From a virus (taxonomy: Duplodnaviria > Heunggongvirae > Uroviricota > Caudoviricetes): a DNA stretch of 14,605 bases. The notes beneath the pieces were generated by a model. It was not told the origin of the DNA, ran no database searches, and worked only from the letters and a program-made list of their open reading frames with translations. The stretch lies in IMG/VR virus record IMGVR_UViG_2648501787_000003; one strand, written 5' to 3'. The position numbers and the translations under genes are program-made. This document shows, piece by piece, positions 6,856-14,593 of this stretch. Positions within the stretch are counted from its first letter, which is position 1. Each line of letters starts with the position of its first letter.

Positions 6856-7506
6856 TCAGCGGCTGTCATTGCGCAGTCTGCGCTCCAGCTGCTGTTTGTC
6901 TTTTTTCACGCCACAGCGGGGATCGAGCTGCAACGCATGGTTGAGATGGTTAAGGGCGGAAGCCGGATTGCTTTCACTCAGGACAGCGCCAATCGCTTTA
7001 TGCAGACGCGCCCGTGACTGGTCCGGCATATCCAGACCGTCTGTCAGCTCCAGCGTCTGCAGCAACAGATCGGCATCAAAGCCGGTGGCGGCAAGCATTG
7101 CGCTCTGCGCCGCGTCTGCCATTTCCTCTGCCAGCACGGTCTGCACATTGCGGTTACCCAGTGGCATCACCCAGCCATGACGCAGGGCATGACATCCGAT
7201 CTCCAGCGCCCCGGCATAATCTCCGGCATCAATGCGCCACAGCATCACGTACATCAGCACGTCATCCTGTTGAGTGCCTCCGGCAGCCAGGACGCCCTCT
7301 GCCCAGGCGGCGTACTTCGGCAGCAGCTCCACCTTGATTTCCGCTTTTTTGACCGTGGACTGAACACCCTTGAGACGGCGGCGGTCTTCCGCCAGTTGCA
7401 GCAGCATCAGGTCATAGCCCGACGCGTGGAGAACACTGCCGCCCTCGCGGGCGGCCTGTTCAGCCTGAACGCGCAGGCGATGCTGCCGTGCGGGACTCAG
7501 GCTCAT
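6856..7506 (-). CDS. M: Terminase small (endonuclease) subunit gpM
   Basis: 216 aa; resembles P2 gpM (…QDD.LMYVMLWRID.GD.AGALEI…, GVKK near the C-terminus); ATG at 7506 lies 4 nt after the N stop. Confidence 0.85.
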   Translation of the reverse strand: MSLSPARQHRLRVQAEQAAREGGSVLHASGYDLMLLQLAEDRRRLKGVQSTVKKAEIKVELLPKYAAWAEGVLAAGGTQQDDVLMYVMLWRIDAGDYAGALEIGCHALRHGWVMPLGNRNVQTVLAEEMADAAQSAMLAATGFDADLLLQTLELTDGLDMPDQSRARLHKAIGAVLSESNPASALNHLNHALQLDPRCGVKKDKQQLERRLRNDSR

Positions 7507-9560: not shown

Positions 9561-11327
9561 ATGAACACCACACTGACACCCGCAGATCTCGATCCCCGTC
9601 GGCAGGCCATGCTGCTGTACTTTCAGGGATACCGCGTCGCCCGCATTGCTGAAATGCTGGGCGAGAAAGTTGCAACTGTTCACAGCTGGAAAAAACGCGA
9701 CAAGTGGGGTGACTATGGGCCGCTGGATCAGATGCAGCTCACCACCGCCGCACGCTACTGCCAGCTCATTATGAAGGAGCACAAAGAAGGGAAAGATTTC
9801 AAAGAGATTGACCTGCTGGCGCGCCAGTCGGAGCGCCACGCGCGGATCGGCAAGTTTAACAATGGCGGCAACGAAGCCGATTTAAACCCTAACGTCGCCA
9901 ACCGCAACAAAGGCCCACGCCGTCAGCCGGAAAAGAATGTTTTCACCGATGAACAGATTGAGAAGCTGGAAGAAATCTTCCATTCCTCCATGTTCAACTA
10001 CCAGCGCCACTGGTGGGAAGCCGGAAAAACCAACCGCATCCGCAACCTGCTGAAGTCACGCCAGATCGGCGCAACCTTCTATTTTGCCCGTGAAGCCCTG
10101 ATTGACGCCCTGCTGACCGGACGTAACCAGATTTTCCTTTCCGCCAGCAAGGCACAGGCCCACGTCTTTAAGCAGTACATCTTCGACTTCGCCAAAGAAG
10201 TGGAGGTGGAGCTGAAAGGTGATCCGATGGTGCTTCCTAACGGTGCCACGCTTTACTTCCTCGGCACCAATGCCCGCACTGCCCAGAGTTATCACGGCAA
10301 CCTGTATCTGGATGAATATTTCTGGATACCGAAATTTCAGGAGCTGCGTAAAGTGGCTTCCGGTATGGCTATTCACAAAAAATGGCGACAAACCTATTTT
10401 TCCACGCCATCAAGCCTGACCCACAGTGCTTATCCGTTCTGGTCCGGTGCGCTGTTCAACCGTGGACGCAACAAAGCCGACAAGGTGGACATCGACCTGT
10501 CCCACAGCAATCTGGCCCCCGGCCTGCTGTGCGCAGACGGGCAATACCGCCAGATAGTCACCGTGGAAGATGCGGTGCGCGGCGGCTGCAACCTGTTCGA
10601 CCTTGACCAGTTGCGCATGGAGTACAGCCCGGACGAATACCAGAACCTGCTGATGTGCGAGTTTGTGGACGATCTCGCGTCCGTGTTTCCGCTCAGCGAG
10701 CTGCAGGCGTGCATGGTGGACAGTTGGGAAGTCTGGACCGACTTTCATGCACTGGCCCTTCGCCCGTTTGGGTGGCGCGAAGTGTGGATCGGTTATGACC
10801 CGGCAAAAGGTACGCAGAACGGCGACAGCGCCGGATGCGTGGTGGTGGCACCGCCAGCCGTGCCGGGCGGTAAGTTCCGTATTCTTGAGCGCCACCAGTG
10901 GCGCGGGATGGACTTCCGCGCCCAGGCGGACGCCATCAAAAAACTGACCGAACAGTACAACGTGACATATATCGGCATCGACTCGACGGGTGTCGGTCAC
11001 GGGGTTTACGAGAACGTGAAAGCGTTTTTTCCTGCCGTCCGGGAGTTTGTCTACAACCCCAACGTTAAAAATGCCCTGGTACTCAAGGCATACGACATTA
11101 TCAGCCACCGCCGTCTGGAGTTTGACGCCGGGCACACCGACATTGCGCAGTCATTCATGGCAATCCGTCGCGCCACCACCGCCAGTGGCAACCGCCCGAC
11201 CTATGAAGCCAGCCGCAGCGAAGAAGCCAGCCACGCCGATCTGGCCTGGGCAACGATGCACGCACTGTTTAATGAACCGCTGCAGGGCGAGTCCGCCAAT
11301 ACAAGCAATATTGTGGAGATTTTTTGA
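9561..11327 (+). CDS. P: Terminase large (ATPase) subunit gpP
   Basis: 588 aa; the N-terminal region resembles P2 gpP as I recall it (…DLDPRRQA…SWKKRDKW…KEGKDFKEIDLLARQ…); ATG at 9561; stop TGA overlaps the Q start. Confidence 0.9.
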   Translation: MNTTLTPADLDPRRQAMLLYFQGYRVARIAEMLGEKVATVHSWKKRDKWGDYGPLDQMQLTTAARYCQLIMKEHKEGKDFKEIDLLARQSERHARIGKFNNGGNEADLNPNVANRNKGPRRQPEKNVFTDEQIEKLEEIFHSSMFNYQRHWWEAGKTNRIRNLLKSRQIGATFYFAREALIDALLTGRNQIFLSASKAQAHVFKQYIFDFAKEVEVELKGDPMVLPNGATLYFLGTNARTAQSYHGNLYLDEYFWIPKFQELRKVASGMAIHKKWRQTYFSTPSSLTHSAYPFWSGALFNRGRNKADKVDIDLSHSNLAPGLLCADGQYRQIVTVEDAVRGGCNLFDLDQLRMEYSPDEYQNLLMCEFVDDLASVFPLSELQACMVDSWEVWTDFHALALRPFGWREVWIGYDPAKGTQNGDSAGCVVVAPPAVPGGKFRILERHQWRGMDFRAQADAIKKLTEQYNVTYIGIDSTGVGHGVYENVKAFFPAVREFVYNPNVKNALVLKAYDIISHRRLEFDAGHTDIAQSFMAIRRATTASGNRPTYEASRSEEASHADLAWATMHALFNEPLQGESANTSNIVEIF

Positions 11328-12373
11328 TGGGAAAGAGTAAGAAAAACCGCGCTGCGGCGATGAATCACATCCAGCATAAAAGCCAGACTTCAGCCGAAGC
11401 ATTCAGCTTCGGCGATCCCGTTCCTGTTCTGGACCGCCGAGAATTACTGGACTATGTGGAATGCGTACAGATGGACCGTTGGTATGAGCCGCCCGTCAGC
11501 TTTGACGGACTGGCGCGCACCTTCCGCGCCGCCGTGCATCACAGTTCCCCGATTGCAGTAAAGTGCAACATTCTGACCAGTACCTATATCCCTCATCCGC
11601 TGCTCAGCCAGCAGGCTTTTTCGCGTTTTGTGCAGGACTATCTGGTATTTGGTAACGCCTACCTGGAGAAACGCACGAACCGCTTCGGTGAAGTTATCGC
11701 CCTTGAACCGACCCTGGCAAAATACACCCGACGCGGATTAGACCTGGATACCTACTGGTTTGTGCAATACGGCATGACTACGCAGCCGTATCAGTTCACG
11801 AAAGGCAGCATTTTTCATCTGATGGAACCGGACATCAACCAGGAGATCTACGGCCTGCCCGGTTATCTTTCTGCCATTCCGTCAGCCCTGCTCAACGAGT
11901 CCGCCACGCTGTTCCGCCGCAAGTATTACATTAACGGCAGTCATGCAGGCTTCATCATGTACATGACCGATGCAGCGCAGAACCAGGAGGATGTGAACAA
12001 CCTCCGCAATGCGATGAAAAGCGCCAAAGGTCCTGGTAACTTCCGTAACCTGTTTATGTACTCGCCTAACGGTAAAAAGGACGGGCTTCAGATTATCCCG
12101 TTGTCAGAAGTGGCGGCGAAGGATGAGTTCCTGAATATCAAGAACGTGAGCCGGGACGACATGATGGCGGCGCATCGTGTGCCGCCACAAATGATGGGGA
12201 TAATGCCTAATAATGTCGGGGGGTTTGGGGATGTAGAAAAGGCAAGCCGTGTCTTTGTCCGCAACGAGTTGATACCTCTGCAGAAACGCCTACAGGAACT
12301 TAACAACTGGCTGGGCGATGAAGTTATACGTTTCGAGCCGTACACTTTAGATATTCAGAATGAAAAGAAATAA
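11327..12373 (+). CDS. Q: Portal (capsid vertex) protein gpQ
   Basis: About 348 aa, immediately downstream of P as in P2. The track starts at TTG 11324; I prefer ATG 11327, which overlaps the P stop (TGATG). Stop TAA at 12371-12373, followed by a hairpin. Confidence 0.85.
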   Translation: MGKSKKNRAAAMNHIQHKSQTSAEAFSFGDPVPVLDRRELLDYVECVQMDRWYEPPVSFDGLARTFRAAVHHSSPIAVKCNILTSTYIPHPLLSQQAFSRFVQDYLVFGNAYLEKRTNRFGEVIALEPTLAKYTRRGLDLDTYWFVQYGMTTQPYQFTKGSIFHLMEPDINQEIYGLPGYLSAIPSALLNESATLFRRKYYINGSHAGFIMYMTDAAQNQEDVNNLRNAMKSAKGPGNFRNLFMYSPNGKKDGLQIIPLSEVAAKDEFLNIKNVSRDDMMAAHRVPPQMMGIMPNNVGGFGDVEKASRVFVRNELIPLQKRLQELNNWLGDEVIRFEPYTLDIQNEKK

Positions 12374-12427: not shown

Positions 12428-12697
12428 TTACCAATTTCTTTTTTCGGAGTTTAGCCAATCACCGCATGGATAATATCTTGACGCCCATTCACCTTGTAAA
12501 CGAGCTACAAACAGAATATCGTTACTATCGACCCTGGCTTGGAGTCCGTCACGCAGTTGAGTTGCGGTCAGCGTTGTATCTACTAACCAAAATGATTCAA
12601 GATATTTACAGTATGTAAATTGCTTTAGATAGTCAAAAACTTCATCGTAGTTTCTTCCCGGAGCCTTCAAGTCATAGGTTATACAATAAATAGCCAT
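12428..12697 (-). CDS. Hypothetical 89-aa protein, predicted alpha/beta (ferredoxin-like beta-alpha-beta-beta-alpha-beta pattern); function unknown
   Basis: ATG at 12697 lies 3 nt after the stop of the upstream Cys-rich ORF; GGAG upstream; AT-rich codon usage unlike the structural genes; hairpin immediately after the stop. MAIYCITYDL... is a hydrophobic beta-strand-like N-terminus. No family assignment possible. Confidence 0.5.
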   Translation of the reverse strand: MAIYCITYDLKAPGRNYDEVFDYLKQFTYCKYLESFWLVDTTLTATQLRDGLQARVDSNDILFVARLQGEWASRYYPCGDWLNSEKRNW

Positions 12698-12700
12698 TCT

Positions 12701-12883
12701 CTAAGCTCCGCATTTTTTATCATTTGGGGAACATCTTAACCTGCGACATTTGCGGCAATACGATTGAGGGATCAGCCGCTCTCCTTCCATAGTTCTAAAA
12801 CCAAACACTTCTTCAATTTTGTTCAAATCACCACTTGCAATAACCCCACAGCAGGGGCAGACAGCCTCAATTTGAAATGCCAT
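12701..12883 (-). CDS. Hypothetical small Cys-rich protein (putative zinc ribbon), 60 aa
   Basis: Seven Cys in 60 aa, arranged CPCC…(30 aa)…CRKC…C…C. ATG at 12883 preceded by TGGAGATAGAC (GGAG 6 nt upstream). The track's 81-aa version starts at TTG 12946. Tightly coupled to the downstream 89-aa ORF. Confidence 0.45.
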   Translation of the reverse strand: MAFQIEAVCPCCGVIASGDLNKIEEVFGFRTMEGERLIPQSYCRKCRRLRCSPNDKKCGA

Positions 12884-12982
12884 GTCTATCTCCATTCCAC
12901 ATGTTGAATGTAGGGTAATACTTCCTTTCAAGCAAAAATGAGACAAGGATCTTGAAACCTAATTTAAACTTGCTTGCGCGCG

Positions 12983-13001
12983 CTCGTATCCCCGCCACGC
13001 C
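12983..13001 (-). other. Candidate cos site (cohesive-end region) of the P2/186 type
   Basis: Minus strand reads 5'-GGCGTGGCGGGGATACGAG-3'. By recollection the P2 and 186 cohesive ends are GGCGAGGCGGGGAAAGCAC and GGCGTGGCGGGGAAAGCAT (15/19 match to 186). Orientation relative to Q matches P2, where the 3' end of Q faces the left cos end. Confidence 0.45.
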
Positions 13002-13023
13002 TGCCCGCTTTATGTAGTAGTTT

Positions 13024-13130
13024 TCATGCAGGTGCATGATCTACGCGAAAGCCCGCCAGTTCTGGCGGGCCCTAGCAAAAACGATCCTCAAACGATCATG
13101 CGATCTCATGCAGCATAGTCATGCACGATC
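13024..13130. repeat. Cluster of TCATGC(A) repeats with five GATC sites
   Basis: TCATGCA at 13024-13030, 13106-13112 and 13119-13125; TCATGCg at 13096-13102; inverted TGCATGA at 13033-13039, forming the palindrome tcatgca-gg-tgcatga. GATC at 13038, 13083, 13094, 13102 and 13127. Confidence 0.5.
13051..13070 (-). terminator. GC-rich hairpin downstream of the 280-aa membrane-protein gene; possible terminator or cos-region structure
   Basis: gcccgccag-tt-ctggcgggc (9-bp perfect arms); on the minus strand it is followed by TTTCGCG, a weak T-tract. Confidence 0.35.
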
Positions 13131-13961
13131 ATTTGACTCAGCATCTGCTGCACGCTTGCTGCGCGAAGATGCACTTTTACTATCAATCTTTCGACAGTTC
13201 TTTCTATCCCTGGCTTCATTTTCTTTAAATTTGTTATATGTCTCAGTATCAAAAAACGAAATTGTTTCAACCTCATCTTTTGGTATGAGCACACGGAAAT
13301 CTTCGATATTAAGCCGAGACATTCCACTTATCACACCACTATCAAGATAATGTTGGTGATAGTTAGTCGTGATACTAATCGTTAGATCATCTTTATCCCG
13401 ATATCCGCTTAACATCGGGAGAAGTTCAAGGTGCTCTGAAAGCCCGTTTTCTAACGCCGGACAAGTAACAAGACCAACATAGATTTTGCGAGACGACAGA
13501 GTTGCTATGATCGGAAACTGTCTTGCGGACGCTTCCATGAGTAATGATTCGAAAGCGTTATTACCCACAGCTTTAGCTAAGGCATCCCAGCGACGATCTC
13601 CACGTGATGTGCGTAACTTATTTCCAAAACCTGAAATCGCAGCGAGGACAATTGAAATCATAACCCATGCTATCTGTTTGATTTCATTTATTCTTTGAAG
13701 TTTGTCTTTCGATGAAGACAACATGCCATTAAAACTGTCAGGTGTTAGATTCAAGGCATTAGCCAGCCAACGAAACCCTCCGCTGACGTTCAAAATAAAG
13801 GTGAAAAAACCGCCAAGGAGAAAAAAAACGATACCCCAGGCAGCCACAAAAAAATAAGCGTCCCAGCCGTTGGAACGCTTATATCGGTATCTTGTTGAAA
13901 GTGATAGGTTTACATAAATAAAACCACTAACCAAAATCACTGCTAAAAGTAATGTTGCCAT
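13119..13961 (-). CDS. Hypothetical membrane protein, 280 aa: three N-terminal TM helices plus ~160-aa C-terminal soluble domain with charged Ser/Lys/Arg-rich tail; function unknown
   Basis: Long ORF in AT-rich DNA; hydrophobic helices at about residues 2-21, 36-58 and 98-113. ATG at 13961..13959 overlaps the TAA of the upstream 71-aa ORF (TAATG), indicating translational coupling. Hairpin 13051-13070 lies ~50 nt past the stop. Confidence 0.65.
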   Translation of the reverse strand: MATLLLAVILVSGFIYVNLSLSTRYRYKRSNGWDAYFFVAAWGIVFFLLGGFFTFILNVSGGFRWLANALNLTPDSFNGMLSSSKDKLQRINEIKQIAWVMISIVLAAISGFGNKLRTSRGDRRWDALAKAVGNNAFESLLMEASARQFPIIATLSSRKIYVGLVTCPALENGLSEHLELLPMLSGYRDKDDLTISITTNYHQHYLDSGVISGMSRLNIEDFRVLIPKDEVETISFFDTETYNKFKENEARDRKNCRKIDSKSASSRSKRAADAESNDRA

Positions 13962-14176
13962 TATCTGGTTCTATTAGTTTTCTCTTTTACAGTGCTCGTT
14001 TTGATGCCTTCAAGCTTATCCATCTGTGCCTTGATGGCATCCATTGCTCTTTTGTTAGACAAGTCTACGGACACAAAACCATCTTTACTAAGATTGAGTT
14101 TGTCCTGGTTCTCTTTAAGAACCCTTGCCAGACGTTCAACTGGGTTACCCAGGCTAAATGCGGCGATGCTTGACAT
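13961..14176 (-). CDS. Hypothetical 71-aa soluble protein (predicted mostly helical, Lys/Glu-rich); first gene of a two-gene cassette
   Basis: ATG at 14176 preceded by a G-rich SD (AAAAGGGGGAGTT-ATG); stop overlaps the start of the membrane protein. The antisense plus-strand ORF 13992..14252 is the alternative reading, so confidence is moderate. Confidence 0.5.
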   Translation of the reverse strand: MSSIAAFSLGNPVERLARVLKENQDKLNLSKDGFVSVDLSNKRAMDAIKAQMDKLEGIKTSTVKEKTNRTR

Positions 14177-14365
14177 AACTCCCCCTTTTCACATGGCGCG
14201 GAAGTCTACACTCCGACGCCTACAACCTCAACAGATTATCTTTAAAATTTAGACAACAATATCATCTGTTGATTGCGTTACTTAAACTTAAGTTCAATGC
14301 GCTCGATCATGCAAGCTGTTTCTTAAGAACTGTTAATTTCCTGGCATATATAGTGGTTAAGGTAA

Positions 14366-14593
<228 letters not shown>

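Follow-up and report, generated by a model that had tools for sequence, protein, structure and literature searches.

The DNA analyzed here is a stretch of 14,605 nucleotides of a virus assigned to the Caudoviricetes (IMG/VR record IMGVR_UViG_2648501787_000003; the whole stretch is called the window below), and the element in question is a dense array of TCATGC(A) repeats and GATC sites at 13024-13130. We propose, with a probability of about three in four, that the TCATGC(A) repeats are the recognition arm of a P2-family cos site and work in the manner of the cosB region of phage lambda. The proposal comes from sequence comparison, by which the repeats belong to a selected, indivisible cos block and keep constant positions relative to the nick across spacers of unrelated sequence. 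The window comes from a P2-like phage or prophage (Peduoviridae) and carries the genes for a portal protein, gpP and gpM in a layout shared by Fels-2, SEN8 and others. In phage P2 and its satellite P4, the cos packaging signal is the only homologous region, and P4 uses the terminase of P2 (PMC9122126).

TCATGC occurs on the plus strand at 13024, 13096, 13106 and 13119 and on the minus strand at 13034-13039; three of the direct copies have a trailing A (TCATGCA at 13024, 13106 and 13119) and the fourth reads TCATGCG (13096), and the first two copies, one on each strand, form the 16-bp palindrome TCATGCA-GG-TGCATGA (13024-13039). GATC is found at 13038, 13083, 13094, 13102 and 13127, that is, at five sites in 93 bp. 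An earlier note, made from the letters of this DNA, had given the same inventory for 13024-13130 (four direct copies and one inverted copy of TCATGC, the palindrome and five GATC), and our recount agrees with it throughout. Over the whole window the two words are unremarkable (TCATGC, 16 against 13.2 expected; GATC, 57 against 47.9 expected), but the local clusters exceed those in 2000 dinucleotide-preserving shuffles of the window, with TCATGC counted on both strands: at least five TCATGC within 95 bp were found in 0 of 2000 shuffles and at least five GATC within 89 bp in 14 of 2000. The note had put forward enrichment of the repeat count over shuffled sequence as a check, and the clusters of both words show it.

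The array was also said to lie beside cos, and the complement of a P2-type cohesive end is indeed found at 12983-13001. This 19-nt sequence, GGCGTGGCGGGGATACGAG on the minus strand, aligns base for base with the P2 cohesive end GGCGAGGCGGGGAAAGCAC (14 of 19 identical) and matches the Smp131 end quoted in PMC3931495 at 18 of 19 positions, and the SEN8 genome record terminates at the base equivalent to window position 13002. We predict from these alignments that the cohesive ends of this phage lie at 12983-13001, and all positions with a sign are numbered from the predicted nick between 13001 and 13002 (+1 = 13002). Around this nick, which follows two small minus-strand open reading frames (ORFs) downstream of the portal gene, the window reads GCGCGCGCTCGTATCCCCGCCACGCC on one side and TGCCCGCTTT on the other. 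In megablast and blastn comparisons with phage genomes, dozens of Peduoviridae match only about 12974-13127, at 88-95% identity. Phages of E. coli, Salmonella, Klebsiella and Yersinia are among them; Fels-2, RE2010, SEN8 and E. coli 500465-1 belong here, as do many from the last two hosts. In an alignment of 10 phages, the invariant columns run from GCGCGCGC (12976) to CATGCAC (13126), the flanks are unrelated, and the right edge of conservation is the last repeat. Judged by these matches, the block at 12976-13126 is the cos site of a P2/Fels-2-like prophage. Its features are the following.

12976..13126, no strand: conserved cos block, about -26 to +125, non-coding, with variable cargo on both sides.
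12983..13001, minus strand: predicted 19-nt cohesive end (cosN), from alignment to the annotated cosL/cosR of P2.
13024..13039, no strand: proximal inverted pair TCATGCA-GG-TGCATGA, +23 to +38, its first half inside the 55-bp core described below.
13051..13070, no strand: GC-rich inverted repeat GCCCGCCAG-TT-CTGGCGGGC, centered at +60, conserved in the Fels-2-type group.
13096..13102, plus strand: distal repeat R1, TCATGCG, ATGC core at +97, at the same position in P2, P4 and a 186-like phage.
13106..13112, plus strand: distal repeat R2, TCATGCA, ATGC core at +107, at the same position in P2, P4 and the 186-like phage.
13119..13125, plus strand: distal repeat R3, TCATGCA, core at +120 (also in P4 and the 186-like phage; +119 in P2); conservation stops just beyond it.

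The site is asymmetric: conservation reaches about 26 bp from the cohesive-end sequence toward the portal gene and about 125 bp in the opposite direction. In ungapped alignment with P2, P4, the 186-like phage and ENT90, identity is 77-85% at -26..-1 and 72-83% at +1..+29. A coding explanation of this conservation was rejected: the ORFs that span the block (12867-13037, minus strand; 13036-13350, plus strand) are without family hits, and the block is intergenic in relatives. Small 'hypothetical proteins' are annotated over the cos block in four of the records compared (L006, 1153-1296; L009, 1489-1638; L015, 363-533; L008, 1427-1636), and these are probably annotation artefacts.

The evidence that carries the proposal is the position of the repeats. 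Counting from the nick and without gaps, we put into one register the joined right and left ends of P2, its satellite P4, a Yersinia phage of the 186 type, an E. coli prophage resembling P2, Erwinia phage ENT90 and the Fels-2 group, and this set has (C/A)ATGCA at +24, usually followed by the inverted copy, and two to four (C/A)ATGC(A) words from about +96. The positions of the ATGC cores and the identities by segment are as follows.

ATGC cores, window: +25, +97, +107, +120.
ATGC cores, satellite P4: +25, +97, +107, +120.
ATGC cores, 186-like phage: +25, +97, +107, +120.
ATGC cores, P2: +25, +97, +107, +119.
Identity, P2 and P4: 93% at +1..+29, 18% at +30..+94, 52% at +95..+125.
Identity, window and P2: 72% at +1..+29, 23% at +30..+94, 65% at +95..+125.

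Because the spacers of P2 and P4 are only 18% identical and the distal words are nevertheless shared, these words have been kept without general homology. A scan of IMG/VR, with a pattern that fixed only -12..+9 of the cos core, returned 120 loci with 110 unique right arms, and an ATGC starts at +25 in 99% of these arms, at +97 in 85%, at +107 in 80% and at +120 in 65%. The mean number of ATGC per unique arm is 2.95 in +91..+130, compared with 0.09-0.16 in neighboring segments and 0.15 in the left arm. When the arms were clustered by their spacers (+30..+94, less than 50% identity), 34 lineages were obtained, of which 33 have at least two distal ATGC and 31 have the first of them at +96 to +98. 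The consensus words of the arms are TTTT(A/C)ATGCAgtTGC, cATGCAAAt, TCATGCAcc and acATGCAtgg, and this arrangement is retained even with terminases in which gpM shares only about 48% identity with that of the window. Information content is high between -26 and about +36 (-12..+9 being fixed by the search pattern), a stretch that matches the published 55-bp core, which is attributed to Ziermann & Calendar 1990 (PMC3931495, PMC5694545, PMC9594776, PMC2231350), and the distal array lies outside this core. Thus, the TCATGC array is conserved in related phages, family-wide and at a fixed distance from the cos nick, and among the roles listed in the earlier note, that of a protein-recognition array of cosB type is favored by these fixed distances in P2, the 186-like phage, the Fels-2 group and P4 across unrelated spacers.

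Both arms of the proximal pair are invariant in the 10 relatives, and in the same register P2 has TAATGCAcc and P4 has TAATGCAgtTGCAc. Only the central dinucleotide varies between GG and CC: it is GG (13031-13032) in the window and in some IMG/VR relatives and CC in the other nine aligned phages, so that, with invariant arms, the 16-mer of the window is the exact reverse complement of that in these nine. Midway along the arm, 45 of the 110 unique arms have an inverted repeat of 5 bp or more centered at +60, mostly with a GCCAG-NN-CTGGC core, and P4 has CCGCGCC-N6-GGCGCGG at this position. This repeat may be a hairpin or terminator for minus-strand transcripts entering cos from the cargo side, or else a palindromic element for binding or bending.

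The candidate readers of the repeats are encoded in the window, and the genes concerned are these.

6856..7506, minus strand: gpM-type small terminase subunit (TerS) and candidate reader of the repeats, with a match to Pfam PF05944 (Phage_term_smal, E = 9e-40).
9561..11327, plus strand: gpP-type large terminase subunit (TerL), PF03237, PF17289 and PF06056, second candidate reader.
11324-12373: portal protein gpQ, the gene of the window beside the cos region.

The N terminus of gpP carries a helix-turn-helix (HTH)-like PF06056 domain (residues 11-68; nucleotides 9561-9770 encode residues 1-70), and residues 13-46 give weak, sub-threshold matches to Sigma70_r4_2 and HTH_23; thus, TerL itself carries an HTH-like module. 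We found no solved structures related by sequence to gpM or to the N terminus of gpP. Arms of the Fels-2 type are paired with gpM proteins about 94% identical to that of the window, and arms of the P2/186 type with gpM proteins about 48% identical to it; because this pairing of cos subtype with terminase is confounded by common descent, we set it aside as evidence on which protein binds.

The long arm is built of three elements. Two (C/A)ATGCA half-sites in inverted orientation lie 22 bp from the nick; next comes a spacer whose length is fixed and whose sequence is free, and in which a GC-rich palindrome is often centered at +60; the word (C/A)ATGC(A) is then repeated three times in direct orientation, at +97, +107 and +120. 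We propose the following model for their action. The gpM protein, probably as an oligomer, would bind the distal direct repeats, whose spacings of 10 and 13 bp would suit adjacent DNA-binding domains of oligomeric gpM, and the proximal inverted pair would suit a dimeric reader, which may be either gpM once more or the HTH-like domain at the N terminus of gpP. Across the constant separation of 72 bp, the intervening DNA would bend or wrap so that both sets of sites are held together, and in this bridged geometry the nuclease of gpP would come to lie on cosN, where it would nick the two strands with a 19-nt stagger. Satellites of the P4 type would be packaged because they present the same words in the same register.

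Several points weigh against this model and against the proposal behind it. Kinship among the sequences inflates the conservation counts, an effect that dereplication and spacer clustering lessened and did not remove. A few arms are without the distal ATGC array (Aeromonas phage LPM4 and locus L130) and another, L021, has one ATGC, so the repeat words are not universal. The reader of the repeats could be gpM, the HTH-like domain of gpP or a host factor. Furthermore, if the Q-side end enters the capsid first, the array would be on the last-packaged end, unlike lambda cosB. The exceptional arms have an order of their own: LPM4 (L013, 401-600) keeps the cos core and has GATCC(TT) at +92, +104 and +123, nearly the same positions as the distal ATGC words, and L130, an IMG/VR relative of LPM4, has zero ATGC in +1..+140, has also lost the proximal ATGCA and, by eye, carries the same GATCC words in its distal arm. 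These two arms look like a natural specificity swap of the recognition word.

The alternative that survives best is Dam-gated packaging, whereby the GATC cluster would make terminase binding or cos cleavage dependent on methylation, or would recruit SeqA to hemimethylated DNA. The five sites were compared across the Fels-2-type subfamily, which comprises 53 unique arms sharing 60% identity or more with the window.

GATC no. 1, +37, 13038..13041: in 23% of the 53 arms, with GACA, GATA and GACC as alternatives; varies in the 10-phage alignment.
GATC no. 2, cGATCCt, +82, 13083: in 72% of the 53 arms; invariant in the 10-phage alignment.
GATC no. 3, cGATCATGC, +93, 13094: in 74% of the 53 arms; invariant in the 10-phage alignment; fused to R1.
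GATC no. 4, +101, 13102..13105: in 13% of the 53 arms.
GATC no. 5, +126, 13127..13130: in 4% of the 53 arms; outside the cos block, in the first bases of the cargo insertion.

The hosts of these phages are Dam-positive enterobacteria, the local density of GATC is above chance by the shuffles, and the pair at +82 and +93, 11 bp apart (13083..13097), is kept in 72-74% of the subfamily arms while neighboring bases vary, as parts of the longer words cGATCCt and GATCATGC. There is also a precedent in P1 pac, a packaging site under Dam control at which methylated TGATCA/G hexamers are needed for cleavage (PMC10028697). However, the other three sites are not conserved, and the fifth belongs to the cargo insertion. 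The modal number of GATC per arm is two in the subfamily, with five only in the two arms that match the window (L044 and L134), and even the conserved pair is found in only about 5% of the other subfamily, which has a mean of 0.46 GATC per arm. The arms of P2 and P4 have no GATC at all, so methylation cannot be a general requirement of this type of cos. Variants with GTTCC, CATCC or GCTCC at +82 occur in otherwise intact arms. The contexts of the five sites (TGATCT, CGATCC, CGATCA, CGATCT and CGATCA) differ from the P1 hexamer, and P1-like hexamers were rejected on these mismatched flanks. In the Aeromonas arm, where GATCC(TT) is itself the distal repeated word, GATC suggests sequence recognition rather than methyl sensing. 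On the alignments, the cluster of five appears mostly peculiar to the phage of the window, with two sites in conserved words and three incidental, and the conserved words fit a protein-recognition word that contains GATC better than a methylation switch. We therefore regard Dam gating as unlikely, and the methylation-sensitive role first suggested for the array as largely unsupported; in the Fels-2-type lineage, such gating could come on top of terminase recognition instead of fully replacing it as an explanation. A bolder proposal joins both ideas: throughout the P2 family, and in P4-like satellites as well, the functional cos would be a tripartite site of about 150 bp rather than the 55-bp core, the distal triplet, 72 bp from the proximal inverted pair, would be the real terminase docking site, an undescribed 'cosB' of P2, and through the GATC pair of the Fels-2 type, docking would also respond to Dam methylation or SeqA, in the manner of P1 pac. 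Taken as a whole, we consider this proposal doubtful.

A second alternative is that the repeats are bound by an accessory DNA-binding protein of the host or phage, such as a nucleoid protein or a cos-bending regulator, or that they form a terminator or insulator shielding cos from read-through. Within the terminase, either gpM or gpP could be the reader of the words, and the hairpin in the middle of the arm is strong on the minus-strand RNA (-24.7 kcal/mol, z = -3.4, by folding) and recurs at +60 in the 45 arms mentioned above. Nevertheless, the hairpin is without a proper T-run (TTTCG in the window, whereas most relatives have TTTTG) and a terminator scan passed over it, and a terminator leaves the three phased direct repeats downstream and the fixed distance to the nick across unrelated spacers unexplained; as a full explanation it was rejected on these grounds. 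The words also accompany the cos core in satellites whose only common ground with the helper is cos. Host IHF is used at lambda cos (PMC4856287), but within 13002-13126 the IHF consensus WATCAANNNNTTR has no match at up to one mismatch, and a lambda-like IHF site was likewise rejected. Two further candidates came to nothing. The sole Rfam match is a microRNA family at 13241-13290 with E = 0.25, far below the gathering score, and we take it as chance. YhdJ is a host methyltransferase of ATGCAT, and it was set aside with the observation that the conserved word is (C/A)ATGCA and only some copies are ATGCAT. An accessory or terminator role in place of terminase recognition is quite unlikely in our estimate.

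The remaining alternatives concern the genes on either side, since the array could be an operator or promoter of the adjacent cargo cassette or a recombination site for the exchange of flanking hotspot genes. Cos-adjacent gene hotspots are known (PMC9122126), and the cargo that flanks the block varies from phage to phage (TIR-domain proteins, an AIPR protein, a retron effector, DinI and unknowns). In relatives, CATGCAC is joined within about 8 bp to CTAACGCCTCGC; in the window, CTAACGCCTCGC is found only at 14376, and this displacement marks 13127 to about 14375 as a 1.25-kb cargo insertion abutting the last repeat. Two ORFs are associated with it.

13119-13961, minus strand: 280-aa ORF that has hydrophobic segments at its N terminus; phrog_3630; neither Pfam nor PADLOC gave a match.
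13961-14176, minus strand: 71-aa ORF; phrog_9843.

The same two genes are present in Klebsiella phage ST15-OXA48phi14.1. A single further copy of GATCATGC, an 8-mer identical to that at distal repeat R1, lies at 14305-14312, upstream of the 71-aa ORF and 1.2 kb from cos, and is most likely due to chance. On the other side, the left cargo (12428-12946, from the portal terminator to cos) consists of two small minus-strand ORFs, one of 89 aa (phrog_1090), with weak Cas2-like PADLOC hits (E = 5e-4) and a homolog annotated 'SinR' in Klebsiella phage ST437-OXA245phi4.1, and one of 81 aa (phrog_19700); the pair may be a small toxin-antitoxin or defense pair in the known Q-cos hotspot.

An overlap of the array with the 3' end of the membrane-protein gene, as first described, is real and marginal: the last repeat overlaps the stop codon and last two codons of the 280-aa ORF, the TCA of R3 being its stop codon (TGA on the minus strand), and GATC no. 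5 falls inside the ORF. This contact, together with flanks that are gene-exchange hotspots with breakpoints exactly at the block edges, is what speaks for an operator or a recombination site. Among complete E. coli genomes, 1274 of 5426 match some part of a 1.8-kb query; a 100%-identical right side, comprising the cos block and both cargo genes, starts exactly at 12974 (hits H91-H98), and in these prophages the left-hand cargo next to this start differs from that of the window. The recombination breakpoint thus falls on the functional boundary of cos, as the homology sets in precisely where the cos block begins on the left. Rousset et al. speculate that cos ends promote recombination (PMC9122126). 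In P2 (L017, NC_001895 33194-33593), the annotated old-tin transcript starts (33424 and 33426, minus strand) lie about 26 bp beyond the third distal repeat, which would suit an operator. The -35 region of old-tin (TTGAAT within cccTTGAATGCA) appears to overlap the cos array of P2. Against these readings, the adjacent genes differ in nearly every relative and the array is constant, the array lies downstream and not upstream of its neighboring gene here, no recombinase is encoded beside it, and breakpoints at the edges are expected anyway from purifying selection on a packaging site. Neither cassette regulation nor the partition or replication roles that the earlier note had entertained find support, as the neighboring genes vary between phages and the block does not, and we consider an operator or recombination site highly improbable. 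Under recognition by the terminase, selection that holds the cos block together would let cargo and defense genes insert only outside it, and it is for this reason that the array would abut, and just touch, a cargo gene at its 3' end.

That short words have clustered by chance in intergenic DNA of mixed AT/GC content, for which only the unremarkable totals over the whole window speak, is rejected by the shuffles (TCATGC, 0 of 2000) together with positions conserved in 33 of 34 independent spacer lineages, and its probability is negligible.

In kind, the finding is ordinary: a cos site in a P2-like phage is known biology, the first TCATGCA is part of the published core, and what is added is a modest extension of cos architecture, that is, a map of a packaging signal and not a new mechanism. 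A fragment of roughly 125 bp may be enough for cos function in P2 and P4, a figure that was given no weight as evidence here. The extension to +125, with its phased triplet in P2 and P4 themselves, is unmentioned in the accessible literature, which quotes 55 bp and to which the original 1990 description does not belong. The site matters for several reasons. It is the one sequence that P2-like phages must have in common with P4-like satellites, and it anchors two of the richest known hotspots of anti-phage defense. Functional limits of about -26 to +125, rather than 55 bp, would provide a testable map of terminase docking, none having been published for this family in the accessible literature, and would explain why cargo insertions stop exactly at 12976 and 13126. 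They may also bear on the design of P2/P4 cosmids and transducing particles, as packaging may be poor for short cos fragments in which the distal repeats are missing; cosmids were transduced better when the cos flanks were longer (PMC9594776). The Dam idea is relevant only to the Fels-2-type lineage, if at all.

Comparison with known systems places the site closest to the cos of P2 and P4. It has the same GC-rich 19-nt cohesive-end sequence (14 of 19 positions shared with P2) and the same terminase families, GCGCGC on one side and (T/C)GCCCGCTT followed by TTTT(C/A)ATGCA on the other, and the same position between the portal gene and the early or cargo region, and its first TCATGCA is the last element of the 55-bp core. 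Beyond this core, the architecture is conserved here to +125, with the inverted partner at +32..+38, the palindrome at +60 and the direct repeats at +97, +107 and +120, and P2 and P4 are included in this conservation. The Fels-2-type lineage differs from P2 and P4 in having C for A before the first ATGCA and two extra words that contain GATC. P1 pac, with seven TGATCA/G hexamers and Dam-dependent cleavage by PacA/PacB, resembles the window in an above-chance cluster of GATC and a close pair beside recognition words; however, P1 is a headful system whereas the window has a cos, the repeated word of the window is TCATGC and not a GATC hexamer, the flanks of GATC differ, and only two of the five sites are conserved, in one lineage, whereas the sister cos sites of P2 and P4 work with none.

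The cos of lambda (cosN plus cosB, the latter R3 - I1/IHF - R2 - R1, read by gpNu1) offers the more instructive parallel. In both systems the site is asymmetric: a short word stands three to five times on a single flank of the nicking site, with an inverted copy nearest the nick and direct copies further out, and between them DNA that is bent in lambda and would be bent in the arm of the window. The two differ in that the TerS of the window is of the PF05944 (gpM) type only and not gpNu1, the ends are 19 nt in P2-type phages and 12 nt in lambda, and the arm of the window has no IHF consensus. The R sites of lambda are unrelated in sequence to the (C/A)ATGCA repeats. P2-type phages package from monomeric circles (PMC2231350). 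In lambda, three TerS-binding repeats and a bend lie beside cosN, and their spacing to the nick is critical (PMC4856287); in arms of the window type this spacing is constant. With another TerS family, no similarity to R sites and no IHF site, the arm is not a member of the cosB family; by analogy, it would bind the terminase and work like cosB.

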